Source of the DNA: an uncultured bacterium
GTDB taxonomy: Bacteria > Acidobacteriota > Thermoanaerobaculia > Multivoradales > JAHZIX01
Reading direction: 5' to 3'
Assembly: GCA_965368975.1 (NCBI GenBank)
Contig: CBDUPA010000003.1
Span: 192,001 to 256,000 of the forward strand
Length of the DNA: 64,000 nt
Shown: positions 51,183 through 63,637 of the stretch, one piece after another
Layout: every line of letters begins with the position of its first letter
How positions within the stretch are numbered: position 1 is the first letter of the stretch
The notes under the pieces: generated by a model
The model's database searches: none
Told to the model about the DNA's origin: nothing
Seen by the model: only the letters and a program-made list of their open reading frames with translations
Position numbers and translations under genes: made by a program

Positions 51183-51551
51183 ATGGCTATCATGTCGGCG
51201 GCTGAACGTGCGGCGCAGATCTGGGCGGTTCTCGGACTTGCTGCACGGAATCGGCAGATCCTTACCTACAAGATGGTCGGTCGTCTGATAGGTGTACCGG
51301 CACATGGCCTAGGACAGCTTCTTGAGCCGATTCAATCGTTCTGTCTGCTCAACCAACTTCCGCCGCTCACAATTTTGGTAGTCTTAGAAAAGACAGGGTT
51401 GCCGAGTACCGGATTTAGTGGAGCGCCCGCTGATGAGTTGGCGAGGCAACAGCTCGATGTATTCGCTTTCGATTGGATTGAGCATGGAGCTCCGACGCCC
51501 GATGAACTGGCGCAGGCGGCGGATGAGATGAAGCATCGACAGAACTCTTGA
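51183..51551 (+). CDS. Hypothetical protein (possible winged-helix: LTY....LIG..LPPLT.LVV....G.P..GF)
   Basis: GAGGAG RBS; 122-aa ORF at the start of the AT-richer islet. Confidence 0.65.
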   Translation: MAIMSAAERAAQIWAVLGLAARNRQILTYKMVGRLIGVPAHGLGQLLEPIQSFCLLNQLPPLTILVVLEKTGLPSTGFSGAPADELARQQLDVFAFDWIEHGAPTPDELAQAADEMKHRQNS

Positions 51552-51760
51552 GTATTAGGAGCACTGGAGAGAGTATGAATTTTCAGCTAGATGGCAAGGA
51601 CTTGGAGCTTATTCTAGAGTCTCTGAGATACACGAAGGAGAGGTTCTCGACCTACGATGGCTACCCATCCGAGGACTTCAGGAAGGAAAGGATTGAGCAG
51701 GTTGAACGCACGCTAGCAAAGCTGCGTTCTGCCAAGTCTACGACTGAGGGTGCAGCATAG
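51548..51760 (+). CDS. Small hypothetical protein (start possibly the internal ATG giving MNFQL)
   Basis: GGAGAG upstream of the internal ATG; protein-like charged helical composition. Confidence 0.5.
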   Translation: MSIRSTGESMNFQLDGKDLELILESLRYTKERFSTYDGYPSEDFRKERIEQVERTLAKLRSAKSTTEGAA

Positions 51761-51826
51761 AGCTTCTGAGCTAGCTGCCGAGAGTGGCGGAGGAGAGGAG
51801 CTAGTTCTTTCCCTTAAGGAGTTATC

Positions 51827-52573
51827 TTGCAAAAGACTGTGAAGCACGATTATCAAGCCTGGCTTCTTCCCGAGAACGTACTAGGCGCCATTCAGACACT
51901 AGCGTTAATCTTTGCTGGGATGTGGGGTATTTTTATTTTCGTGAAGTTCGAAGAGGCGGAAAGATCTCTTCAGGCGGAGTTACTGAAAAGTCAAAATTCT
52001 CAGGCAGAACTCTCTCAGCAGATCGCGTCGTTGGAACTCCTGCAGCAGGAGAATCAGGTGCGCACAATGCAAAGTGCACGGCATGCCATAGATCAGAGTA
52101 TCGAGATTCAAACCATTGAGAGTGAAGAAGAGCGGAATACCTATCTTGTGACATATGAGTATGCAGTCTACAATACGGGGGACTCAGCCATTGAAGTTAC
52201 CTATATAGTTGTTTATGCATACATCTTTGATAACTTCTTTTTGGCGCCTATGCGGGCGATGGAGGTGCCTAGATTTGGTACTGAACTAGGGTCTGGATGG
52301 GAGCCGATTCTCGATAAGGGGTATTACTATGGTCCTCACTGGAAAGAAGGAATGACCTTTGTCTCGAAGCAGGGAGGAAGAGCAGAATTTCTGAAGGGTG
52401 GCGGAGGTACCTCAGAACTTGACCCTTCAGAACGGTCTGTGGGTGATGTTCAGCTGCTGATTAGGGCTGAGCCTGGTAGTATCATCGGATTCGAAGCAGT
52501 GATCGGTATCAATGGAGGGAAGGACCCCGTTGACCGATTGCATTTGAGAGATAAGGCGCTCCTCTTGGAGTGA
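51827..52573 (+). CDS. Hypothetical protein: TM helix, coiled coil and beta-rich C-domain
   Basis: TAAGGAG RBS before TTG; 248 aa; codon usage richer in A/T than the flanking genes. Confidence 0.7.
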   Translation: MQKTVKHDYQAWLLPENVLGAIQTLALIFAGMWGIFIFVKFEEAERSLQAELLKSQNSQAELSQQIASLELLQQENQVRTMQSARHAIDQSIEIQTIESEEERNTYLVTYEYAVYNTGDSAIEVTYIVVYAYIFDNFFLAPMRAMEVPRFGTELGSGWEPILDKGYYYGPHWKEGMTFVSKQGGRAEFLKGGGGTSELDPSERSVGDVQLLIRAEPGSIIGFEAVIGINGGKDPVDRLHLRDKALLLE

Positions 52574-52629
52574 GGAGATCACTGCCATTTTGAAGGGAGA
52601 ATGTGTTGTTAAAACCACCTTGGCGACCA

Positions 52630-52899
52630 GTGAAGCTGACTCTTGGGCTTGTCTTCGTGGGATTGTGTGCGGGTTGCGGAGGGAGCACACTAGAACAGGG
52701 AACGAGTTCAGGTGAAGCAGTTGAAGTGACATCAGAGTCAATTGAAGAAGCAGCGGAAGACACTGCAGATGAGGCAGTGGGCGCTGCAGATGAGGTAGAG
52801 GACGCTGCAGATGAGGCAGAGGACGCTGCAGATGAGGCAGAGGACGCCTCTACGGATGCAGAGGAAGGCACTGGAGGACCCGATCCAATAGGTAGCTGA
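52630..52899 (+). CDS. Small putative lipoprotein with acidic heptad repeats
   Basis: (M)KLTLGLVFVGLCAGC lipobox-like signal followed by EDAADEA repeats. Confidence 0.55.
   Translation: MKLTLGLVFVGLCAGCGGSTLEQGTSSGEAVEVTSESIEEAAEDTADEAVGAADEVEDAADEAEDAADEAEDASTDAEEGTGGPDPIGS
52756..52860. repeat. About five tandem 21-bp repeats (gaggacgctgcagatgaggca)
   Basis: EDTADEA/VGAADEV/EDAADEA/EDAADEA/EDASTDA. Confidence 0.85.
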
Positions 52900-52999
52900 T
52901 GCGGACGTGCACTGACTCGAGGTTGAGCTTCAGGCTTGTGCCATTGGAATTGCTGTTCGTTCTTCGCCGAGTTGCGTGACCTGTGCATACTGAAGTCAT

Positions 53000-54508
53000 T
53001 TAGGCCGGTTCGAAGCAGGCGTGGAATCCTAGCCGCACCGGCTTCGGTAGCGGCAAGCGTGCTACTGGCCCGGCCGCGACGTCGAAGGCGTCGAACAGCA
53101 GGAAAGCACCCGTACCTGTCTCGGCGGCGAATTCTTGGATCAAGATCAGGCCTTCGTCCGTCTTCTCGGGATGCGGCAGGAACGTCGGTTCACCGCCCAG
53201 GTAGCACTTGGGCGGAGCTTGCCAGAAGCCAGCGGCGCCGCCGCTCGACTTGAGCTTGGGCGTGTCCTTCCAGCTCAGGTGCACGAGACGATCAAAGAAC
53301 TTCCGTCCCGGCTTCGCTGTGTGCGACAGGGCGAGGACCCAGAAGTCGTCATAGGGTTGTTCCAGACGCCGTGGATCGATGTGCGGGAAGTCGCACATCA
53401 GGTCGTGGCCCAGTTCTCGACGCTCGACCAGCTCACCGGCTCTGGGATCGAGTACGAAGCGCACCGGCCGTGCATGGCGGACGTCTTCGAACAGGTGATC
53501 GGGGACGCCGTACTGGTCGTAGACGGGGCGTTCGAGTTCGATCACGTCGACCACCAGGTAGGTCTTCTCTCCATCGCGACGCTCGAAGCTGTTGACCAGG
53601 TGCAGGCAGTAGCGGTCGCCCAGTTCGACCTCGCAAAGGGCGCTACCGTCGTCGCGGCGGGCGATCAGTAGCTTGCTGCCGAGCGGTTGGGTTTGACCTT
53701 CGAGCGTGGGCCGCCAAGTCAGGGCATCCATCAGCGTCGCCTGGCTGCCCATCAGCGCGTCCATGTCGAGCACGTAGGGACTCAGATAGATCACCAGGTG
53801 GTGCGGCGCCAGGGCGAAGTCGTGCACCGAGCGCGGAGCATCGAGAGGCAAGCGCTGACGGTAGATCGACGCGCCCTGGGCATCGAAACGGTAGACATGC
53901 ACGCACGGTCGGCGAGCGGCGAAAGAAACGCCGAAGTTGAACAGCTCGCCGCTCTGGCCGTCGATCTTCGGGTGCGCCGAGAAGGGGCTGATGGCGTTCA
54001 GGCGGCCGTCGAAGGTGAAGACCTCTTTGGTCTCGAGGGTCTCTGGATCCAGTTCCCAGGGTAGGCCTTGTTCGCCAAAGGCCAGCAGCGTGCCGGCTGC
54101 CGGGTAGATGCTGACGTTGAGCGGGGACTCGAGACCGATCCCGTGCTTGAGCTGGTCGTCCTCGAAGGCGGTGCCGAAGGTGCGGTACAGCGCGTGTCCG
54201 GCGGCGTCTTCGTCGCGCACCTTGGTGCCGTGGACGAAGCGGTGGGTGAAGCGGACACGATCCTGCGTTCCGTTGCCGGTACCGGCGCTGCCGCCAAAAC
54301 GCAAACGGCTGACCTGGCCGTCACCATCCAGCCAATGTCCATAGCGCTGGGTGCCACGGCGAAACCGCGCAGGGCCGTTGAGGTAGTAGTTCCCGCGCAG
54401 CCAGGACGGAATGTCTCCTTCGATCTCGGTCAACTCCAGGTCGCCTTCCCACAATTCGAGGTCGAAGGCGCGTTCGAGCAGGGGAGCGTGGTCGGCGTTG
54501 GGCATCAT
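53000..54508 (-). CDS. Carotenoid oxygenase / lignostilbene dioxygenase / RPE65-family non-heme iron enzyme
   Basis: EGDIP..LRG.YY.NGP, HWLDGDG, E.G.P...DP.TLET; four Fe-ligand His in FSAHPK, SVHDF, CLHLVNSFE and GFHACF; DFP and EP.F. Confidence 0.93.
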   Translation of the reverse strand: MMPNADHAPLLERAFDLELWEGDLELTEIEGDIPSWLRGNYYLNGPARFRRGTQRYGHWLDGDGQVSRLRFGGSAGTGNGTQDRVRFTHRFVHGTKVRDEDAAGHALYRTFGTAFEDDQLKHGIGLESPLNVSIYPAAGTLLAFGEQGLPWELDPETLETKEVFTFDGRLNAISPFSAHPKIDGQSGELFNFGVSFAARRPCVHVYRFDAQGASIYRQRLPLDAPRSVHDFALAPHHLVIYLSPYVLDMDALMGSQATLMDALTWRPTLEGQTQPLGSKLLIARRDDGSALCEVELGDRYCLHLVNSFERRDGEKTYLVVDVIELERPVYDQYGVPDHLFEDVRHARPVRFVLDPRAGELVERRELGHDLMCDFPHIDPRRLEQPYDDFWVLALSHTAKPGRKFFDRLVHLSWKDTPKLKSSGGAAGFWQAPPKCYLGGEPTFLPHPEKTDEGLILIQEFAAETGTGAFLLFDAFDVAAGPVARLPLPKPVRLGFHACFEPA

Positions 54509-54516
54509 CGTTCTCC

Positions 54517-56382
54517 TCAGGTGGAGCGGAAGCGGTCGAGGACGGTCGGGTCGAGTTGCCAGGCATGAGCCCGGCCATCGGCGTGGTCGACAGCCAGAGC
54601 CGCCCAGGTCTCGGGCATGAAGTCCAGCGCGTCGAGATCGAGGGATGCGACGAAGCCGGCGTCGCTGCGCAGCTCGGGTCGTTCGAGCACCACCGAGGCC
54701 ACGTGGGCGGCGAGAAAGCGGGCGAACTCTTCGAGGCTGGTGAGCTGGGCATCGAGCACCCGGCGGGCCTCATCCGCGTCGACGCCGACCTCATAGAAGG
54801 TCGTTTCGGCGCGGCGCAGCGGTGCCAGGTCCATGAAATCGAAAAAACACGGCTCCCCGCGACCGGCGCCCGGGTGTGCGCGCTCGCTCTTCCATTGGAA
54901 GAAGCCGCTGAGCAGGCGCTGGACGCCGTGGTTGGTCGGGCCCAGGCGGGCGAAGCGGCGCAGCCAGCCGAGCGCGAAGCGGCGGTCGGTGAGCAGGTCG
55001 TTGATGAAGGGGAAGACGTAGTAGGCGAAGTAGACGGTCAGCTCCCAGGTGTACTTGAGGCTGAAGGCTTCCTGGTCGCCGAGGGCGTCATAGCTGACGG
55101 TGTACGTCGGTTCGTAGGCGGCGTAGACGCCGCGCATCAACTGCTCCGAGAGCGAGCACTTGTCAGCCAGGCGCTGGCGGCCGGCTTGGTCCGTCGTGTC
55201 GGTCTCAATGGCATCGACGATCAACGTGTTGTAGACGGAGATCAGGTCACTGCCGGGACTATAGAGCGGGTCGCTGAAGCGCCCGGCCTCACCCGCCAGC
55301 GCCCAGCGTCGCGGGTGGAGGGTCTGCTCGCAGTCGTAGGAGAAGTCCTTGTAGCCACCGAAATCGACCACGTTCCGCCGCGGTAGATCGTGGGCGAAAC
55401 AGGGGAAGCGCTCGCACACCCAGGCGGTTGCCTTGTCGACGGTGAAGACGTCGCGGTAGTCGACCACCGCCTTGTCGAAGACCAGGCCGAGGCTGGTCTT
55501 GCCCTGCAGCGGGATGACCCAGAACCACAGCCCCTCGTCCATGAAGTGGTTGGTCGCTAGCCACGCAGGAAGGTGGCCTTGGTGGCGTCGCTGAGGTTTC
55601 TTGCGGATCTCGTCGCTGCTGGCGTCGGTGAGGCGATCGACGTCGACCAGACCGTCGACCCACCAGAAGAAGGCGGCGTGGTCGATCGAATTGTCTCGCG
55701 TCAGCTTTTCCTGCTTGGCCAGCAGCTTCCGGCGGCCGGTGGTGTCGACCACCCAGCCGGCGGCGACCTCGTACTCCGGTGCGTCCGTCTCGGGCCCACC
55801 TGAGTAGGTCTTCTGCGGGTCGCCGAGACGGAAACGCAGCTCATGGTCCTGGTCGGGGTCAGCCGGCGAGGAGCCGCGGTCGAGGTCGACCTGCAACTGC
55901 TGTACGCCCAGGCGAGCCGTGAAGCGTGGATTCTGCAGATTCCGCCGGAGCAGTTCGGCCTCGAAGGTATTGCGATCGAGCTGGTAGCTGGCGATGTTGG
56001 AGAACGGCCGAATGTAGGACTGGCTGTATTCCTCGAAGCGCTGGTTGCCGGCGCCGGGTGTCTTCCAGTAGAAGCGGAGGTTGTACTTCATGAAGTGGTG
56101 CAGGAAGAGATACTCTTCCAGCTCCAGGACGCGCGAGAAGTAGTAACCGGCGAGTTGCACGCTCGACTCTCCGACTTTCTGCCGCTTTTGCGGCAGCAGG
56201 TCTCGACGCTCCAACAACAGTACGCTCTTGTTGGTCTTGAGTAGCAGGTGGCGCGCGAGGCTGAGGCCGGCCAGGCCGCCACCGAGGATCACGACGTCGT
56301 AGCGCGCCGCAAGTGCCGTGCCGTCGGCGCTCGCGTTCACCTGCTCGGCAGTGAAATCCACGACGGGTTGAGGGGAGTTCAT
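54517..56382 (-). CDS. Flavin-dependent halogenase-like enzyme
   Basis: GGGLAG FAD motif, KVGES, candidate catalytic Lys in HFMKYNLRF, YQLDR..FE, WFWVIP (WxWxIP), GEAGRFSDPLYSPG; ATG 56382 overlaps the upstream stop. Confidence 0.85.
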   Translation of the reverse strand: MNSPQPVVDFTAEQVNASADGTALAARYDVVILGGGLAGLSLARHLLLKTNKSVLLLERRDLLPQKRQKVGESSVQLAGYYFSRVLELEEYLFLHHFMKYNLRFYWKTPGAGNQRFEEYSQSYIRPFSNIASYQLDRNTFEAELLRRNLQNPRFTARLGVQQLQVDLDRGSSPADPDQDHELRFRLGDPQKTYSGGPETDAPEYEVAAGWVVDTTGRRKLLAKQEKLTRDNSIDHAAFFWWVDGLVDVDRLTDASSDEIRKKPQRRHQGHLPAWLATNHFMDEGLWFWVIPLQGKTSLGLVFDKAVVDYRDVFTVDKATAWVCERFPCFAHDLPRRNVVDFGGYKDFSYDCEQTLHPRRWALAGEAGRFSDPLYSPGSDLISVYNTLIVDAIETDTTDQAGRQRLADKCSLSEQLMRGVYAAYEPTYTVSYDALGDQEAFSLKYTWELTVYFAYYVFPFINDLLTDRRFALGWLRRFARLGPTNHGVQRLLSGFFQWKSERAHPGAGRGEPCFFDFMDLAPLRRAETTFYEVGVDADEARRVLDAQLTSLEEFARFLAAHVASVVLERPELRSDAGFVASLDLDALDFMPETWAALAVDHADGRAHAWQLDPTVLDRFRST

Positions 56383-57659
56383 GATGGACCTCGAGTTGCG
56401 GACGACGTCTCCGGCGAAGCCTGGCTCTCTGCAGCAGACAGCTCTTCCGCCGCGGATAGTGGCCGGTTGCGGCCGTAGGTCTCGTGCGCGTCGACGAGTT
56501 CCGAGCTGGCGATGGCACCACCCATGGACAGCTCCCCCGCCAGCGCCATGGCGACCGCGATTTCGGCGAATTTGCGTGCCTTGCCACTGCCGACGCAGTC
56601 GAGCATGCGCAGGCACTCTTGGCTGGTACCGAGCGCGGTGCCGCCGCCGACCGTGGCGATGGTGAGCGCGGGGAGGGTGACGCTGGCGTAGAGGTCACCG
56701 TCGTCGGTCAGCTCGAACACCGTGATGCCGACCGCCGCGTTGGCGATGTTGGCGACGTCCTGTCCTGTGGCGAGAAACAGCGCCGTCAGACCGTTGGCCA
56801 AGTGTCCGTTGTAGCCCAGGGCAGCCGTCTGCAAGTGCCCGATCACCGTGTGCTGCCACATGCGCACCAAGGCCTCGGGGCTTGCGTGCAGAAGGCTACG
56901 GCAGATATCCGCCGGGATGCGAGCCCCGGCGACGGCGCGCTTTCCCTTGCCTCCGGCGAACAGAGAGCCGGCAGCACGTTTCTCGGCGCTGTAGCCACTG
57001 AAGATGTAGAACTCGGGTGCGTCCAGATGGTCGCGCAGCCAGGCGCACACCGCCTCGGTGGCTTTCACCGCCATGTTCATGCCCTGCGCATCGCCGGTAG
57101 AGAACACCAGGTTGAGAATCAGCTTGCGGCCCACGGGCTGCAGCTCGATGCGTAGCAGGGCACCGTGCTGGGTGGTGGTGGCGGCGGCGGCGCGCAGTTG
57201 CTCGAGGTGCGGTGGTAAGCGCTGGGCGAAGGCGTGAGCCCGCATGGCGGTGTCGAACAGGAAGACGGGAGAGACGCGATTCTCGTCGCTGTAGAGGCGC
57301 GCTTCGGCACCGCCAGCCCGTGTCAAGGCGACCATGCCGCGCTCGTAGGAGCGCACCAGGGTACCTTCGCTGGTCGCCATGGGGACGTAGAAGACACCGT
57401 CGGCATGCTCGCCGCGCACGTGCAACGGACCGGCGACGCCGAGTGGCGTTTGTACCGAGCCGATCGGGTTCTCGATGTTGCCGCGCAGGCTCTCGCCCGC
57501 CAGCGAGCAGCGCCCGACGTGCTCCAGGCTGGCGCCTGTCTGCGCCTCGACCCACTGGCGTCGACGCTCGATGTCGGCGTCGCTGTAGCCCTGCTTGCGC
57601 AGGCGTGGGACCAACCGCGGTGCGCGCTGAGTGGGCTCTTCTCTCGTGTCGCTCGTCAT
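56379..57659 (-). CDS. HMG-CoA reductase (class I)-like thioester reductase
   Basis: NIENPIG, PLGVAGPL, PMATSEGTLV, TGDAQGMNM, ATGQD.AN, TVGGGT, AGELS and C-terminal His (DAH). Confidence 0.9.
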   Translation of the reverse strand: MTSDTREEPTQRAPRLVPRLRKQGYSDADIERRRQWVEAQTGASLEHVGRCSLAGESLRGNIENPIGSVQTPLGVAGPLHVRGEHADGVFYVPMATSEGTLVRSYERGMVALTRAGGAEARLYSDENRVSPVFLFDTAMRAHAFAQRLPPHLEQLRAAAATTTQHGALLRIELQPVGRKLILNLVFSTGDAQGMNMAVKATEAVCAWLRDHLDAPEFYIFSGYSAEKRAAGSLFAGGKGKRAVAGARIPADICRSLLHASPEALVRMWQHTVIGHLQTAALGYNGHLANGLTALFLATGQDVANIANAAVGITVFELTDDGDLYASVTLPALTIATVGGGTALGTSQECLRMLDCVGSGKARKFAEIAVAMALAGELSMGGAIASSELVDAHETYGRNRPLSAAEELSAAESQASPETSSATRGPS

Positions 57660-59044
57660 GATGCCTCGTCCTCACGCTGCAGAATCAGCGCACATGCGTT
57701 GCCGTCTAGGCCGAGAGCCGTGACCAAGCCTCGGCGCACGGACGTGGAGCCGGCCGGACGCTGCCGCAGGGGTTGGCAGGTCGCCTGGACCGGCAGTGGG
57801 AAGGCGTCGGGAAGCTGCTCGAGTCCATGAACGCCCGGTAGCTCTCCCTGCGCCAACGCGGTGATCAGCGCTACCGTTTGCAGGGCTGGACCGGCGCCCA
57901 AGGCTTCGCCGAGCATCGACTTGACGGCGGTCACCGGCGGTAGGGACGTGCAGGAGCGGAAGGCGAGGGCCAGCCCGGCGGCTTCGTGCTGATCGCCTGC
58001 CGGACTGCCGTTGGCCGAGCAGCTGACAGCGTCGATGTCGTCGATCTGCACTTGTGCGTCGTCGAGGGCGATGGCGATAGCACGAGCGACGGCGTCGGCG
58101 GCCGACTCGGCGTCCCGCCCGCGCGACGGATCGAAGGCGTTCCCGTGACCGACCAGTTCAGCGTGGATCTGGGCGTCGCGCTCGCGTGCCGCGGCCAGAG
58201 GTTCGAGCATCAGCAGCGCCGCTCCTTCGCCGAGTGCGAAGCCGTCCCGGCCGGTGTCGAAGGGTACCGGTCGCTGCGTCTGCGTTGCTGCTCTCTCGGC
58301 GCCTGGACCGTTCGAGGCTGATCCGCTGAGATCCGGCCCACCCGTCATGCGTCCGGTGCGCAGAAAGCCGAAGAAGGAAGGCAGGCTCAACTCCTCGGCG
58401 CCGCCTGCGAGCACGGGGCCACTGCGGCCGGAGCGCACCATTTCGGTAGCGTAGGCCAAGGCTTGCAGGCCGGACGTGCTACCGGCGCACAGCGTCGAGT
58501 TGAGGCCGCGCAGGTCGTGCCAGATGGCCGCCTGGCCGGCGGCGGCGTTGATCACGGTATTGGCGAAGTCGAGGGGCTTGGCATACTGCGGCCCGAGTTC
58601 CAACGCCCGTTTGTCGAACTGCACGATCGTGCGCACGCTGCCGAACATGGTGCCGAGGACCAGGCCGACTTCGTCCTCGGCGCGGCGCTCTGGAGTCCAG
58701 CCCGCTTGCTCGAGCGCCAGGTGTGCCGCCACCGTCGTCAGGCGTCCGGTTCGGTCGAGTGGGCGGAAGTTACGCTTGCCCAGGTAGTCGAAAGGAGAGA
58801 AGCCTTCGATCGGGGCGCCCAGTCGACCTTCGATCGCTGGGCGCAGGGCCTCCGGTAGTTCGCCGTCGTCGGGCATCTCGTGCAGCGGACGCAGCGCGCT
58901 GTTGCCGCGGCACAACGCTGCGTGGAGGGTCTCGGCGGCGTCGCCCAGCGGGCTCAGCAGGCCGATTCCGGTCACCGCCACGCGTGCGGCAGTCGGGTGG
59001 TGGACGGTGCCCGTGGTGTGCCCGTGTCGTGTGCCTTTTGACAT
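57656..59044 (-). CDS. Catalytically inactive ketosynthase / chain-length-factor-like subunit
   Basis: KS fold, but the triad is lost: ACAAG becomes GSTSG, HGTGT becomes SANGS, GHTMG becomes GEALG. Confidence 0.88.
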   Translation of the reverse strand: MSKGTRHGHTTGTVHHPTAARVAVTGIGLLSPLGDAAETLHAALCRGNSALRPLHEMPDDGELPEALRPAIEGRLGAPIEGFSPFDYLGKRNFRPLDRTGRLTTVAAHLALEQAGWTPERRAEDEVGLVLGTMFGSVRTIVQFDKRALELGPQYAKPLDFANTVINAAAGQAAIWHDLRGLNSTLCAGSTSGLQALAYATEMVRSGRSGPVLAGGAEELSLPSFFGFLRTGRMTGGPDLSGSASNGPGAERAATQTQRPVPFDTGRDGFALGEGAALLMLEPLAAARERDAQIHAELVGHGNAFDPSRGRDAESAADAVARAIAIALDDAQVQIDDIDAVSCSANGSPAGDQHEAAGLALAFRSCTSLPPVTAVKSMLGEALGAGPALQTVALITALAQGELPGVHGLEQLPDAFPLPVQATCQPLRQRPAGSTSVRRGLVTALGLDGNACALILQREDEAS

Positions 59045-59055
59045 CGTGGGTCCCC

Positions 59056-60294
59056 TCAGGCGGTCTTCCGAAAGAGTACGGAGGCGTTGTTGCCGCCGAA
59101 GGCGTAGGCGTTGTTCATCGCCACCTGGACGGTCACGTCGCGGGCCTCGTTGGGTACGCAGTCGAGCGGCATACAGTCTGGATCCTCCTCCTCGAAGTTC
59201 ATCGTCGGCGGGACCCGATCTTCATATGTCGCCAGGGCACAGACCGCAGCCTCGATCGCCGACGCGGCGCCCATGGTGTGCCCGAGCATGGACTTGATCG
59301 AACTCATCGGCGTCCTGCCCGCAGCGTCTCCGAAGACACGCCGTACCGCTGCACTTTCCAGGCGGTCGTTGGTCGGTGTGCCGGTGCCGTGGGCGCTGAT
59401 GTAGTCCACTTGCTCAGGACGAAGGCCGCATTCGGCGAGTGCCTTGCTCATCGCCCGTGCCGCCCCTCGACCCTCCGGGTGCGCTCCGGTCATGTGATGC
59501 GCGTCACAGGACAGGCCGTAGCCAGCAACCTCACTGTAAATCGTGGCGTCCCGTGCTACGGCACGCTCCCAGGGCTCGAGCACCAGCATGGCGGCTCCTT
59601 CACCTGGAATCATGCCCTTACGGTTGCGGTCGAAGGGTTGAACGCGCTCGGGGGCGATGGCTCCGACGCGCCAGAAGCCGGTGTAGGTGATGCGTGAGAA
59701 CGAGTCCGCACCACCTGCCAGCATGATGTCGGCGCGGCCGCTGCGCAGCACGTCGAAGGCGTGGGCGATGGCGTAGTTGCCGGCCGCGCAGGCTGCCGGG
59801 ATCATGGTGTTGACGCCCGAGAAGCCGAACTCCGCGGCCACGTAGCCCGGCACCACGTGGCAGGGGTAGAGGTTCATGAACTCCGGTCCCAACTCGGGTA
59901 GGGCCTGCGCAGCTTGGCGGTCATTGTAGTGCTCGACCTGCAGCGGTTCGCCGGAGGTCGTGCCGAGTGCCACGCCGATACGTTCGCTGCGGACGCCGTC
60001 ACCGAGATCGAGCCCGGCATCCTCGAGCGCTTGTCGCGTCGCCGCAATCGCCATCTGGGATGTGCGACCAATGTCGGCCGGATCGAGGTTGCGGACGTGC
60101 TGCGCGGCATCGAAGTCGCTGACTTCGGCGCCGCGGTCAGCGGTAAAGTTCGTGGTATCGAAGGAACGAACTGCGTGAATGCCGGAATCTCCGGCGAGCA
60201 AACGTTGCCATACCAACTGCCGACCGCTTCCCAGAGGGGTGACGAGGCCGATGCCGGTGATAGCGACGCGAGAGCAAGCGCTGCGCGTGGCCAT
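59056..60294 (-). CDS. Beta-ketoacyl-ACP synthase II (FabF-like / type II PKS KS), intact Cys-His-His
   Basis: PAACAAG, SAHGTGT, KSMLGHTMG, NAYAFGGNNA. Confidence 0.93.
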   Translation of the reverse strand: MATRSACSRVAITGIGLVTPLGSGRQLVWQRLLAGDSGIHAVRSFDTTNFTADRGAEVSDFDAAQHVRNLDPADIGRTSQMAIAATRQALEDAGLDLGDGVRSERIGVALGTTSGEPLQVEHYNDRQAAQALPELGPEFMNLYPCHVVPGYVAAEFGFSGVNTMIPAACAAGNYAIAHAFDVLRSGRADIMLAGGADSFSRITYTGFWRVGAIAPERVQPFDRNRKGMIPGEGAAMLVLEPWERAVARDATIYSEVAGYGLSCDAHHMTGAHPEGRGAARAMSKALAECGLRPEQVDYISAHGTGTPTNDRLESAAVRRVFGDAAGRTPMSSIKSMLGHTMGAASAIEAAVCALATYEDRVPPTMNFEEEDPDCMPLDCVPNEARDVTVQVAMNNAYAFGGNNASVLFRKTA

Positions 60295-60310
60295 GAGAAG
60301 CGAACTCGTG

Positions 60311-60583
60311 CTACGCGGCTTGCGTGTCGTCGAGGTGCTGCCGGCGAAGGGTTCCTTGCACCAGGTCGACGGCTTCTTGGACGTTCTTCAAACTCTGGAG
60401 CCGCTCTTCCGGCAAGCCGAGCTTGAACTCATAGTCGACGTCGACGGCGATCTCCAGAAGGGACAGGGAGTCGAGGTCCAGTTCGTCCTGGAACGAGGCG
60501 TTGTCCCCGATCTCTTCCGCCGGGATACCGGTGACGTTGGTGATGATCTGCTTGATTCTGCCGCGAAGTTCAGAGGCTTCCAT
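60311..60583 (-). CDS. Acyl carrier protein
   Basis: Acidic 90-aa protein with LDLDSLSLLEI (phosphopantetheine Ser); GGAGG RBS. Confidence 0.93.
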   Translation of the reverse strand: MEASELRGRIKQIITNVTGIPAEEIGDNASFQDELDLDSLSLLEIAVDVDYEFKLGLPEERLQSLKNVQEAVDLVQGTLRRQHLDDTQAA

Positions 60584-60701
60584 GACTTACGTTCCTCCCT
60601 GGAGGTTCAATGGATCAGGCGCTGATTTAGAAGGCATCGAAGAACTGCGGAAATTCCCGCATTGCCAGAACAGTAAGTCCAACTGACGATATCTCAACCG
60701 A

Positions 60702-60741
60702 TTGTCGTTCGACAAGGGTCTCCAGCTGCCGTTCGACAAGG
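60702..60741. promoter_or_regulatory. Candidate operator upstream of the ACP operon: inverted repeat TTGTCG-TT-CGACAA and direct repeat CGTTCGACAAGG x2
   Basis: Inverted repeat at 60702-60715; direct repeats at 60706-60717 and 60730-60741. Confidence 0.45.
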
Positions 60742-60755
60742 AGCAGGGTCTACGC

Positions 60756-61481
60756 TCAAATGCTATCAGAAGTCGTCAGCCAGCCGCGTTCCTGCGCGAG
60801 GTGCACGGCCTCGTGGCGGTTCTCGACCTCCAGCTTGTCGAGGATGTGGTGGACGTGATTCTTCACCGTATGCACCGACAAGTGCAGTTCCTGAGCGATG
60901 CGTTTGTTGGAGGCACCGTGCGCGATCAGCTGCAGGACCTCCATCTCGCGCGCTGTCAGCGCCAGGGCCTCCGCCCTCAGCCGTTTGCGATGACGTGCTT
61001 CCAGCTGTTCAAGGTGCTTGAGCAGAGCGCGGGTGATTGCCGGCGAGCTGACGGCCTCACCGGCGGCGAGCCGGCGCACGGCGTCCGCAAGTTCCACCAG
61101 CGACGTGTCGCGCGACAGGTAGCCGCGCACACCGGCACGTACGCTCGGAAGTAGCAGCGTGTCGACATCGAACGGACCCAGCAGCAGCAAGCGCGCTCCA
61201 TCCAGCTCGCGTGCCAGGTCGCGGATCAACGACAAGTCCTCGGCGTCGGAGCGGGCCGGCGCAATCAGCACCACGTCCGGTTGCTGCTCGCGACCCAGTT
61301 CGAGAGCCTCTGCGGCGTCGCCGGTGGCACCAGCGACCTCGAGATCCTCGCCATCCAAGGCCAGGATCAGGCAGTCACGCAGCACCTTGTGCGGTGTGAC
61401 CACCAGCAGGCGGATTTTCGGTCTCAACGGTACGTCTCCCTGCAGCTTCGCTCCCACCAGCGAACCTGCTCTGCGTTCCAC
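60756..61481 (-). CDS. NarL/LuxR-family regulator with atypical receiver domain
   Basis: LTAREMEVL..G.SNK.IA..L..S..TVKNHVHHIL; receiver has VVTPH (no DD), VVLIAP (no phospho-Asp) and GYLSR (no Lys). Confidence 0.88.
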   Translation of the reverse strand: MERRAGSLVGAKLQGDVPLRPKIRLLVVTPHKVLRDCLILALDGEDLEVAGATGDAAEALELGREQQPDVVLIAPARSDAEDLSLIRDLARELDGARLLLLGPFDVDTLLLPSVRAGVRGYLSRDTSLVELADAVRRLAAGEAVSSPAITRALLKHLEQLEARHRKRLRAEALALTAREMEVLQLIAHGASNKRIAQELHLSVHTVKNHVHHILDKLEVENRHEAVHLAQERGWLTTSDSI

Positions 61482-61602
61482 GGCTGACCTCGTCCCGCCA
61501 GCGACGAGCCGTGGATTGCAGGACCGCCTGAGGATACCCGAAACGCTGTGCTTGTCAAAGCACCTGTTCCAGGGCGGTCACTGCCGGCATCGGCTTCGCG
61601 AT

Positions 61603-62367
61603 TCACCCGTCGAGTTCCTCATGGCGCTGCGTCTGCGACGATCGCGGTGCAGTCTCCTCTGCCCTTGAAGCTGGTGCCTCTGAAGCGGCTGCCTCTGAGG
61701 GGGGTGGCAGCCAACCACGGCGCTGTGCTTCGTCGACGGCTTGGGCGCGTCTGCGAGCGTTGAGTTTGTCCAGGATGTTGTGCACGTGGTTCTTGATCGT
61801 GTGGATCGACAGGCCGAGGCGCTCGGCCACGGCCTGATTGCCTAGCCCTTCCTGGATCAGCGTCAGGACATCCAGTTCGCGCGCCGTCACTCGTGGTTGC
61901 TGGTCCGAGGTGGTGGCCTGACGGTAGCGGGCTTGCAGCCGTCGGAGCAGAGCTGGCAACTCCTGTGGTGGGCAGCCTGCCTTGCCGCGCAGCGCTGGCC
62001 GCAGGATGTCGAGCAGCTCCCGGAAGCTGCATTCGCGCGACACGTAGGCGGGGGTCTTGTCCGCCAGTTCTGGCGGCACCATCAGCAACAGGCGGCAGTG
62101 ACTGGGCAGAGTACGCGCTACCTGGTTCAGTCGCAGCAGTTCCGTGGGGCGCCGTCCGTCGGTCTCTATGATCACCAGGGCTGGAGCCTCGGGCAGCAAC
62201 GGGGCAGTGTCGATGCGTAGGTCTGCCTGCACGACGGCGTGGTCTGGGAAGGCTCGCTCCAGGCGCGCGGCGAGGCCTTCACGCCAGACACCGAAATTAC
62301 TGAGCACGAGAAGTGTCGGACTGTCGAGCATGGTCTGGACCCGTTGGGAACGGCCCCTCGGTTGCAC
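61603..62367 (-). CDS. NarL/LuxR-family regulator with degenerate receiver domain (start possibly 62331)
   Basis: VTARELDVL..GLGN..VA..TIKNHVHNIL; receiver has LVIIE and appears shortened. Confidence 0.85.
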   Translation of the reverse strand: MQPRGRSQRVQTMLDSPTLLVLSNFGVWREGLAARLERAFPDHAVVQADLRIDTAPLLPEAPALVIIETDGRRPTELLRLNQVARTLPSHCRLLLMVPPELADKTPAYVSRECSFRELLDILRPALRGKAGCPPQELPALLRRLQARYRQATTSDQQPRVTARELDVLTLIQEGLGNQAVAERLGLSIHTIKNHVHNILDKLNARRRAQAVDEAQRRGWLPPPSEAAASEAPASRAEETAPRSSQTQRHEELDG

Positions 62368-62452: not shown

Positions 62453-63157
62453 TCAGACTGGAGAGCGGAGCGTCGAGCGCCACGGAGACTCGCCTTCCAA
62501 GATGCCGCTTTCGTAGGCACAGCGAATGGCATCGCGCCGACGGCGAACCTGGAACTTCGTGAGGATGTTGTGCACGTGGTTCTTGATCGTGGGCACGGTG
62601 ATTTCCAGGCGAGACGCGATTTCTTTGTTGCGCAGGCCACCCGCCATGTGCTGCAGCACTTGCAGTTCGCGCCGCGTCATGGCCACTCTCGCCGGTGCGC
62701 CGGACTCTGGCTCGGCAGTGAGGAGGCAGCGTAGCCGTTGGAGGGCGGCATCGAGCACTGGTTGCCCGAGATTGGGTTGCCGGCGGTGAACTTGACGGAT
62801 GTTGCCCAGGAGCTCCGGGATGGAGGCCTGTTTCAGACTGACGCTGGCAGCACCGGCTGCCAGGAGCTGTACGACCTGCGCTACGTTGTCGGCATCCAGA
62901 CCGAAGGGCAGAATCTCGGCGGCGGAGCCGACGGTGCGCAACTGCCGGGTGATGTCCAAAGCACGGCGCGTCCCGAGTCCGGTGTCGAGCAGGACCACAT
63001 CCGCCTGGCTGCGTTGCAGACGCTGCTGCGCCTCGCCATCGAAATCCTGACTCTCGCCGGCTAGCTGCAACTCGGCCTGGTCCTCGAGACAGTCACCCAG
63101 GACTTCTCGCATCAGGCGGTGGCGGCAGATCAGGAAGACGCGAATGGGGTCGTTCAT
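62453..63157 (-). CDS. NarL/LuxR-family regulator
   Basis: MTRRELQVL..G..NKEIA..TIKNHVHNIL; VVLLD and Lys retained, but the acidic pair is replaced (LICRH). Confidence 0.88.
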   Translation of the reverse strand: MNDPIRVFLICRHRLMREVLGDCLEDQAELQLAGESQDFDGEAQQRLQRSQADVVLLDTGLGTRRALDITRQLRTVGSAAEILPFGLDADNVAQVVQLLAAGAASVSLKQASIPELLGNIRQVHRRQPNLGQPVLDAALQRLRCLLTAEPESGAPARVAMTRRELQVLQHMAGGLRNKEIASRLEITVPTIKNHVHNILTKFQVRRRRDAIRCAYESGILEGESPWRSTLRSPV

Positions 63158-63637
63158 GGCCAAGAAGGGGGTCCGACTGCACAAAGTTTTGCGCTACACG
63201 ACCCTTTGTCGATACTCATCAGATGTAAGATTCAATCGTTCGTGGGATTTCGAACGCTCCTGTGTTGCGATCATCGGTAACCCTACGTTTCAGGTCGAGC
63301 CGCGGCAATGAGTCGCAGGTCCTAAAAAGGATGCTGGCTCCTTAATGGTCGATCATAGATCTATGAATCAGTTCCCATTGTTGTATCCGACAGAGTAAAA
63401 AAGAACGATCGAGGAACGCTTGGGCGGTCGCGTCACGGCCTGTGGAAGAGAAATCGCCTGGGAGAGGTGGCTAAGTGGCACCGTGGGCGAAGCCGCAGGG
63501 GTTCAGGGTCGGTTGGCGGTGATGACAGGAATGCCTGTGCGAGCCGGACGGGGAGTTGCTGAAACAGCCCCCGAGAGCCAGGTCGTGCGCGCTGCTGCGG
63601 CTGCAGGAGAAAGCGGCCCGGCTCGTCCCGCAGGTGG

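Follow-up and report, generated by a model that had tools for sequence, protein, structure and literature searches.

The open reading frame (ORF) at 56379-57659 on the minus strand of a 64,000-nucleotide stretch from an uncultured acidobacterium (assembly GCA_965368975.1, contig CBDUPA010000003.1, positions 192,001 to 256,000; this whole stretch is called the window in the following) encodes a protein with the fold of class I 3-hydroxy-3-methylglutaryl (HMG)-CoA reductase (HMGR), in which the catalytic residues are retained. The gene lies in an operon with genes that encode an acyl carrier protein (ACP), a ketosynthase (KS) and a chain-length-factor (CLF)-like KS partner. Probably, it encodes a neofunctionalised acyl-thioester reductase that depends on NAD(P)H and is of the same kind as FcrA; this enzyme would off-load or reduce the chain built by KS/CLF on the dedicated ACP. 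Shown here are the fold, the catalytic residues, the clade-wide loss of HMG contacts, the coupling within the operon, the conserved synteny and the placement off the canonical HMGRs. That the protein works as an HMG-CoA reductase is very unlikely. The distinct HMGR-fold subclade tied to ACP, KS and CLF is new here, and HMGR-derived thioester reduction itself is already known from FcrA (2025). In the open-access literature and on bioRxiv no paper linking an HMGR-fold gene to a KS/CLF operon was found.

Fold and pocket residues of the reductase

A Pfam scan of the ORF product gave PF00368 over residues 30-397 with 346.9 bits. With TIGR00533, the NCBIfam equivalog model of HMGR, 315.6 bits were obtained and the cut-off of 441.8 was not reached. 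The AlphaFold2 model, built from an alignment of 117 rows, has a mean predicted local distance difference test value (pLDDT) of 93.9. Its top Foldseek matches were the archaeal HMGR 6hr7 (template modelling (TM) scores 0.82/0.88, root-mean-square deviation 2.5 Å) and the human enzyme 1dqa (TM 0.82/0.88).

The motifs ATSEG (position 95), NRVSP (127), DAQGMN (190), SGYSAEKR (221), MWQHTVIG (267), TGQDVAN (298), TVGGGT (336) and LVDAHE (388) were located in the protein. It was aligned by HMMER with the solved HMGRs of human (1dq8), Arabidopsis (7uli/8ecg) and M. thermolithotrophicus (6hr7). The catalytic residues E559, K691, D767 and H866 correspond to E98, K227, D301 and H392, and N755 is likewise conserved as N289. 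In the part of the work by Haywood (2022, PMC9500038) used here, Arg590, Ser684, Asp690 and Lys692 are described as polar contacts to the HMG moiety and Lys735 as forming a salt bridge to the HMG carboxylate. In the window protein R590 is replaced by V129, with an Arg one position earlier (R128), and D690, K692 and K735 read E226, R228 and H270. The cis loop has one residue fewer between SG and EKR. The equivalent of S684 is ambiguous: it is S221 by HMMER and F220 by MAFFT, which puts no gap in the cis loop. Leu862 corresponds to Leu388.

An initial annotation of this DNA, made by eye from the sequence, had described the catalytic Glu, Lys, Asp and His and the cofactor motifs as present. It had read MTRGP as NRVSP with the Arg displaced or lost, the cis loop as shortened by one residue with Asp to Glu and Lys to Arg changes, and NKNLVG as QHTVIG with loss of the Lys. 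The HMMER alignment agrees in each respect, and only the gap placement in the cis loop is ambiguous. A proper alignment with conserved HMG-binding Arg, Asp and Lys had been named as an outcome that would speak against a remodelled pocket; these residues were found replaced. Also the proposed comparison of a predicted structure with human and archaeal HMGR was in line with the assignment to this fold.

Conservation in the clade and place in the HMGR family

A scan for relatives, with one genome per species, found 96 relatives, and 80 loci with identities of 50-67% were kept. By label, nearly all of them are metagenome-assembled genomes (MAGs) of Acidobacteriota. Together with the window protein they form a clade alignment of 81 rows. 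Catalytic Glu, Lys and Asp are present in all 81 rows and His in 80, the remaining row being truncated. Arg is missing throughout the R590 column (Val 32, Ile 28, Thr 21) and Lys throughout the K735 column (Ser 43, His 23, Arg 8, Ala 3, Asp 2, Thr 1, Gln 1). The D690 column is Glu in 81/81 rows, and the K692 column contains Arg (74), Lys (4) and His (3). Phe is found in 75 of the 81 rows at L862, where the window has Leu and no row has Trp. The two candidate columns for S684 contain Phe in 78/81 (F220 column) and Ser in 80/81 (S221 column). Since this pattern is uniform over the 81 rows while the catalytic residues are kept, the changes in the HMG contacts are a character of the clade and not drift.

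Furthermore, R103, E106 and N127 are invariant in the clade; rows with canonical signature carry Ala, Asn and Met there. Beyond the clade, R103 together with E106 occurs only in the sister sequence P0123. Clade matches with at least 53% identity were found in seven of 301 sampled genomes of the phylum, the window genome included. Thus, the distribution is patchy and of accessory character.

In a search of 1.84 billion cluster representatives, 3300 proteins reached E≤0.001 and 770 reached E≤1e-30. Only one full-length protein (P0121) and seven fragments had more than 50% identity, and the next matches reached at most 47%. Outside the clade, 135 representatives could be aligned across the whole domain, and only seven of these have the full canonical signature (Arg590, Asp690, Lys692, Lys735, Leu862).

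A characterised non-canonical member of the family is FcrA, a class I HMGR homologue which reduces fatty acyl-CoA, not HMG-CoA, to the alcohol (Grossi et al., ISME J 2025, PMC11948995). According to the parts of this paper used here, FcrA retains the four catalytic residues of HMGR and is not inhibited by 10 µM simvastatin. Compared with HMGR, Ser684 is changed to Glu, a conserved pocket Lys to small residues and Leu862 to a bulky residue, Trp in N. pharaonis; the Lys is printed as "Lys795" and is taken here to be Lys735. FcrA often has an N-terminal alkyl-binding domain or, in several bacteria, a fused ACP domain, and FcrA-type sequences form a large monophyletic group apart from characterised HMGRs (PMC11948995).

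For the phylogeny, 96 rows were picked by hand from 152 aligned ones to span all groups of a FastTree, and an IQ-TREE "quick" tree was calculated. A branch with a Shimodaira-Hasegawa-like approximate likelihood ratio test value of 100 divides the seven rows that are canonical by residue signature from the remaining 89. The window clade has a support of 100 and its position as sister of P0123 one of 97. Both lie within a group of 37 rows (support 92, not starred), none of which has Arg590. On its non-canonical side, the tree holds the window clade as well as FcrA-like rows with the PF25653 type of N-terminal domain. The tree thus supports that the window clade belongs to a non-canonical branch of class I HMGRs.

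Several relatives are domain fusions. The Pfam scan of selected relatives identified PilZ-HMGR fusions (P0127, P0131, P0134, P0145), whose HMGR domains lack Arg590; an N-terminal PilZ suggests that c-di-GMP may control some members of the branch. P0141 combines AMP-binding, PP-binding and HMGR domains, P0163 AMP-binding and HMGR, and P0125 a 4HBT (thioesterase-like) domain and HMGR. P0160 has a kinase-like (EcKL/APH) C-terminus behind HMGR, and P0139 is of the PF25653 N-domain type.

The operon and its relatives

The reductase gene is part of a minus-strand operon with the order three LuxR-type regulators, ACP, KS, CLF, reductase, halogenase-like flavoprotein and RPE65-family oxygenase (Table 1). 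ATGA overlaps join the CLF stop to the reductase start and the reductase stop to the halogenase start. Hence, the coupling to the CLF and halogenase genes given in the initial annotation was found at both junctions. The cluster is a tightly coupled six-gene cassette.

The three proteins encoded upstream correspond to a minimal KS/CLF/ACP cassette: the KS triad is intact, its partner lacks the triad and the ACP has a DSL serine, with D38-S39-L40 invariant in 40 of 40 rows. Among the Pfam matches of the window operon there is no cyclase/aromatase or ketoreductase (KR), and the operon is therefore not assigned to the aromatic type II polyketide synthases (PKS). Dehydratase (DH) and enoylreductase (ER) were not among these matches either. 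A promoter/terminator scan of positions 51500-61800 gave three terminator-like sites compared with 5.9 expected, which is uninformative. For positions 53000-60600, no RNA or DNA sequencing runs were listed.

Table 1 Genes of the operon in the window and the neighbouring regulators
Feature	Coordinates	Strand	Remarks
HMGR-fold thioester reductase (predicted)	56379..57659	-	426 aa; E98, K227, D301, H392 kept; V129, E226, R228, H270 changed; clade-specific R103, E106, N127
CLF-like KS partner	57656..59044	-	462 aa; Ser at the KS Cys position, both catalytic His replaced, 21-residue insertion
FabF-like KS	59056..60294	-	412 aa; Cys-His-His triad
ACP	60311..60583	-	90 aa; DSL serine motif
FAD-dependent halogenase-like protein	54517..56382	-	621 aa from an ATG overlapping the reductase stop; WFWVIP and KVGES stretches, which we take to be halogenase signatures
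RPE65 / carotenoid-stilbene cleavage oxygenase family protein	53000..54508	-	502 aa
Three LuxR-type (GerE) regulators upstream of ACP	60756-61481, 61603-62367, 62453-63184	-	

Genes in related loci were called by ORF picking and BLAST clustering. Among the loci anchored on the reductase, 68 extend at least 3.2 kb upstream of it; in 49 of these, KS and CLF lie directly upstream on the same strand, and 44 of these 49 also have the ACP. Conversely, 46 of 78 new KS-anchored loci include the reductase. One or two LuxR-type genes precede the ACP in many related loci. Neighbours in the 77 loci in which the reductase was called are a CrtI/amine-oxidase-like FAD enzyme (65), a fusion of an epimerase-like and a PlsC-type acyltransferase part (38), a FabG-like short-chain dehydrogenase/reductase (SDR; 31), a putative TetR regulator named from reading translations (23) and an ABC1/UbiB-type kinase (16). 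Neither an acyl-CoA ligase nor a thioesterase was observed in the conserved core of the related loci. The cluster is found as well in MAGs with the labels Poribacteria, Latescibacterota, Zixiibacteriota, Nitrospinota and Pirellulaceae. Judged by PurA, the nearest relatives of the window genome are Thermoanaerobaculia MAGs (62%).

Two types of cluster can be distinguished (L174, L176, L181, L190, L220, L224, L227, L240, L244, L248 and others). The first has the order ACP-KS-CLF-reductase-CrtI-like-acyltransferase. The second, (LuxR, LuxR) ACP-KS-CLF-halogenase-RPE65, is without reductase. Three contigs have two sets in tandem (L195, L229, L239), and some contigs hold both types. The window operon is a cluster of the halogenase-RPE65 type with the reductase inserted.

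The genes that accompany the reductase in relatives are dispersed in the window genome (G000), with the CrtI-like gene on C8 and the acyltransferase, the kinase and a second ACP on C12. This second ACP, 60% identical to that of the window, heads the gene run at G000:C12:68146-89179, which in relatives follows the reductase. Besides the epimerase-like/PlsC acyltransferase fusion and the ABC1 kinase, the run comprises several unknown families as well as one GDSL-lipase-like and one DinB-like gene. A further KS/CLF-like pair at G000:C5:125142-132653, with 42% and 30% identity to the pair of the window, lies near a halogenase-like gene (29%) and possibly belongs to a separate aryl-polyene-type cluster. 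An ORF of 159 aa at 52509-52988 (minus strand), directly 3' of the RPE65 gene, had no Pfam match and no tblastn match in 83 related loci (L001-L083).

Isoprenoid route and HMGR paralogues of the genome

The gene could also encode a genuine, divergent HMG-CoA reductase that feeds the mevalonate pathway of the genome. The strong PF00368 match and the intact catalytic tetrad agree with this, as does the genome itself. Its completeness is reported as 99.3%. Dxr and IspH were not found in the genome search, no Dxs reached the cut-off, and a diphosphomevalonate decarboxylase is present (C13:68459-69538). Thus, the organism appears to use the mevalonate route. A mevalonate-kinase-like gene (C3:265519-266775; 149.8 compared with a cut-off of 163) is located about 16 kb from the reductase.

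Three PF00368 genes were found in the genome: the window gene, a paralogue of 518 aa and a class II HMGR. The class II HMGR (C16:104499-105779) adjoins putative polyprenyl-synthase-like and menaquinone-type (men) genes, named from reading translations. As this enzyme is available, the window gene is not needed as housekeeping HMGR. In addition, Arg590 and Lys735, the latter known for the salt bridge to the HMG carboxylate (PMC9500038), are missing in all 81 rows, the TIGR00533 cut-off is not reached and the clade branches apart from the rows with canonical signature. With its presence in 7/301 genomes, its translational coupling to CLF and halogenase genes and a kinase-like gene that lies beside ABC-transporter and not pathway genes, the clade hardly fits a housekeeping role. 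A divergent HMG-CoA reductase is therefore considered very improbable.

The statement of the initial annotation that no mevalonate genes are nearby holds within the window and has to be restricted with regard to the kinase-like gene below cut-off outside it. Formation of mevalonate together with the remaining pathway in the genome had been named as evidence against an acyl-thioester reductase. This applies in part: a mevalonate route indeed appears to be used, but the class II HMGR is available for the housekeeping role. An ACP-based route to mevalonate was also considered; it was ruled out, since the cluster contains no HMG-synthase-type enzyme and only seven of the 301 sampled genomes have the clade.

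The paralogue of 518 aa (G000:C3:309893-311449, minus strand) has Glu at Ser684, Val at Lys735, Trp at Leu862 and an N-terminal extension of 150 residues. By these residues it is FcrA-like. P0139, 67% identical to it, matches PF25653. A hidden Markov model of its N-terminal domain matched only 3/150 representatives; other N-terminal extensions are PilZ, 4HBT and AMP-binding. The paralogue adjoins a putative ABC1/UbiB-type kinase ORF, named from reading the translation.

Proposed function

An acyl-thioester reductase in the KS/CLF pathway would act as follows. KS/CLF would decarboxylate and condense malonyl-ACP, and an acyl or polyketide chain would grow on the ACP. With Glu, Lys, Asp and His, the HMGR-fold enzyme would then transfer hydride to the thioester carbonyl, yielding an aldehyde and probably the primary alcohol, as HMGR and FcrA do. 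The product or an ACP-bound precursor would be tailored by the halogenase-like flavoprotein and the oxygenase of the RPE65 type. In relatives, the CrtI-like FAD oxidoreductase and the epimerase-like/PlsC-type acyltransferase fusion may also act. We infer the reaction, the cofactor, a four- or two-electron reduction, an ACP- or CoA-bound substrate and the product.

Direct action on acyl-ACP is favoured by the coupling to CLF, by a core without CoA ligase and thioesterase and by carrier-fused relatives, namely P0141 and the FcrA-ACP fusions reported in PMC11948995. The complex of two reductase copies with the ACP was predicted with 0.53 compared with 0.00 for the best control; this was graded as weak support and is not used as evidence. 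The runs agreed in at least 92% of the contacts, and the partner pLDDT was at least 82. Of the solved complexes 58 out of 80 passed the mark applied, and of the mismatched pairs two out of 110; at 0.60 or below there were only seven of the 80 solved complexes and both mismatches. These counts are approximate, since own alignments were used.

The initial annotation had suggested an acyl-ACP thioester reductase as a new chain-release mechanism of a type II PKS. The fold, the lost HMG contacts and the linkage to ACP, KS and CLF agree with an acyl-thioester reductase, and the idea is supported in kind because the clade lies on the FcrA side and FcrA reduces fatty acyl-CoA. The claim of novelty is narrowed, since the principle of an HMGR-derived thioester reductase and FcrA-ACP fusions are already in print (PMC11948995).

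The enzyme might instead be an ordinary FcrA-type fatty acyl-CoA reductase that converts free acyl-CoA to fatty alcohols, which would go into wax esters or ether lipids, with KS, CLF and ACP feeding fatty acids only indirectly. Its position on the non-canonical, FcrA-containing side of the tree would fit. The epimerase-like/PlsC fusion of relatives resembles FAR-like/acyltransferase proteins of myxobacterial ether-lipid operons, as far as these are described in the part of PMC9131029 used here, and also the PlsC-like genes noted next to fcrA (PMC11948995). However, an acyl-CoA ligase or thioesterase supplying free acyl-CoA was not seen in the conserved core, and the genome already has the FcrA-like paralogue with Glu at S684, Trp at L862 and the 150-residue extension. 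The window clade has neither this N-domain nor S684E or L862W, and the ATGA coupling to CLF suggests a stoichiometric partner. We regard an ordinary FcrA as unlikely. The myxobacterial elb ether-lipid operon was examined as identity of the cluster and ruled out, because no HMGR-like gene is among those listed for elb in the part of PMC9131029 used here.

The polar pocket and an operon without KR, DH and ER leave room, as we read them, for a beta-oxygenated or short substrate. A short 3-oxo- or 3-hydroxyacyl thioester could be converted to a diol or hydroxy-aldehyde building block, or the enzyme could work in the oxidative direction. The charged pocket with the gained invariant R103 and E106 is consistent with this, and in 31 of 77 loci a FabG-like SDR comes after the reductase. 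In contrast, FcrA, the sole characterised relative on that side of the family, requires in vitro a chain length of at least C14 (PMC11948995). Such a different substrate is hardly probable.

Some results weigh against the proposed acyl-thioester reductase of the KS/CLF pathway. A plain long alkyl chain is not an obvious fit, because the pocket keeps or gains the polar residues E226, K227, R228, H270, R103 and E106. Two of the three substitutions stressed for FcrA are lacking in the window protein. The window clade has Ser or Phe and not Glu at S684, and at L862 the window keeps Leu and most of the clade has Phe, where FcrA has Trp. In the tree, "canonical" is defined by the residue signature alone, and its rows include neither named canonical HMGRs nor the characterised FcrA of N. 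pharaonis and Ca. P. breve. In 19 of the 68 reductase-anchored loci KS and CLF are not directly upstream. At least 13 KS-anchored loci have the order ACP-KS-CLF-halogenase(-RPE65) with no reductase between; therefore, such KS/CLF systems can do without a copy next to them. Finally, HMG-CoA synthase was not found in the genome with three models, so that the entry steps of the isoprenoid route, i.e. the source of HMG-CoA, are not fully accounted for.

As a tentative extension, which we hold to be possible, the enzyme may take over its substrate directly from the ACP. Reduction by an HMGR fold would then be an undescribed release of KS/CLF (type II PKS/fatty acid synthase-like) chains. It might form the exit step of a widespread lipid or pigment pathway in Acidobacteriota and a few candidate phyla, with a core of ACP, KS, dead-triad partner and phytoene-dehydrogenase-like enzyme that would have its homologue in the anammox ladderane Cluster I.

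The release step of KS/CLF assembly lines is often the missing part. The HMGR fold was shown as thioester reductase only in 2025 and for free fatty acyl-CoA, and the clade would extend this to a KS/CLF line with carrier protein. More than 120 related loci are annotated as "hydroxymethylglutaryl-CoA reductase", which would mislead reconstructions of the mevalonate versus the methylerythritol phosphate pathway in Acidobacteriota.

Comparison with known systems

Canonical class I HMGRs (human 1dq8/1dqa, Arabidopsis 7uli, 6hr7) have the fold, the catalytic tetrad, the DAxGMN loop and the GGGT loop in common with the window protein. They differ from it in R590, D690, K692 and K735, which are replaced in the window; the window protein also scores below the TIGR00533 cut-off and its gene is not linked to pathway genes.

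With FcrA the window protein shares the class I HMGR fold, the retained Glu, Lys, Asp and His, the loss of Lys735 and the position outside the canonical group. In both cases a separate true HMGR is present in the same genome, and some members of the family are fused to ACP. In contrast to FcrA, the window clade has no N-terminal "Lad" domain, has lost Arg590, carries Glu for Asp690 in a shortened cis loop and shows R103, E106 and N127 as invariant residues of its own. The window gene is located in an ACP-KS-CLF operon, whereas FcrA is found beside WS/DGAT or fadD. Thus, the general picture fits and the specific FcrA signature does not, and the window protein is not counted as a member of FcrA.

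Reductive release of thioesters to aldehyde or alcohol with NAD(P)H is known from the SDR-type terminal thioester reductase (R/TR) domains of nonribosomal peptide synthetases and PKS and from FAR/AcrB. The reaction proposed for the window enzyme is comparable, but the folds are unrelated (Rossmann SDR versus HMGR). Hence, the window enzyme is no member of the R/TR group.

The KS of the window is FabF-like, and its nearest relatives are the KS of 9s5h and that of ishigamide biosynthesis. The best structural match of its model is the ishigamide KS/CLF 6kxd (TM 0.94/0.96, 42% identity), which belongs to a type II PKS of the highly reducing kind. At its end, this pathway forms an amide and does not proceed by reduction. 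In sequence, the window KS matched chain B of 9s5h in the PDB with 474 bits and the CLF matched chain C with 207 bits, while 33 bits were obtained for the ACP with chain E of 9s5i.

These two entries are probably the amxFabF2/amxFabFmut heterodimer of Brocadia fulgida with and without ACP (preprint 10.64898/2026.05.19.726425). The assignment was made because one and the same shift of 5 brings the residues Ser296, Ala297 and Asn390 quoted there onto chain B. In the part of the preprint used here, amxFabF2 is described as structurally closest to the ishigamide KS, as is the KS model of the window. Anammox Cluster I is reported to contain an ACP, FabZ, a pair of FabF homologues, a homologue of phytoene dehydrogenase and a B12-radical-SAM enzyme (10.64898/2026.05.19.726425). 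The words "reductase" and "HMG" are absent from the main text of the preprint.

Judged by these sequence matches, the KS, CLF and ACP of the window are the closest relatives found of a solved KS/CLF-like heterodimer, probably the pair of the anammox ladderane Cluster I. In both systems a dedicated ACP goes together with a FabF-like KS that is active and a KS partner whose triad is dead, and relatives of the window cluster also hold a phytoene-dehydrogenase-like FAD enzyme. FabZ and the B12-radical-SAM enzyme are found in Cluster I, whereas the acidobacterial clusters are without radical SAM and add the HMGR-fold reductase. A comparison of both systems might therefore inform the ladderane problem.

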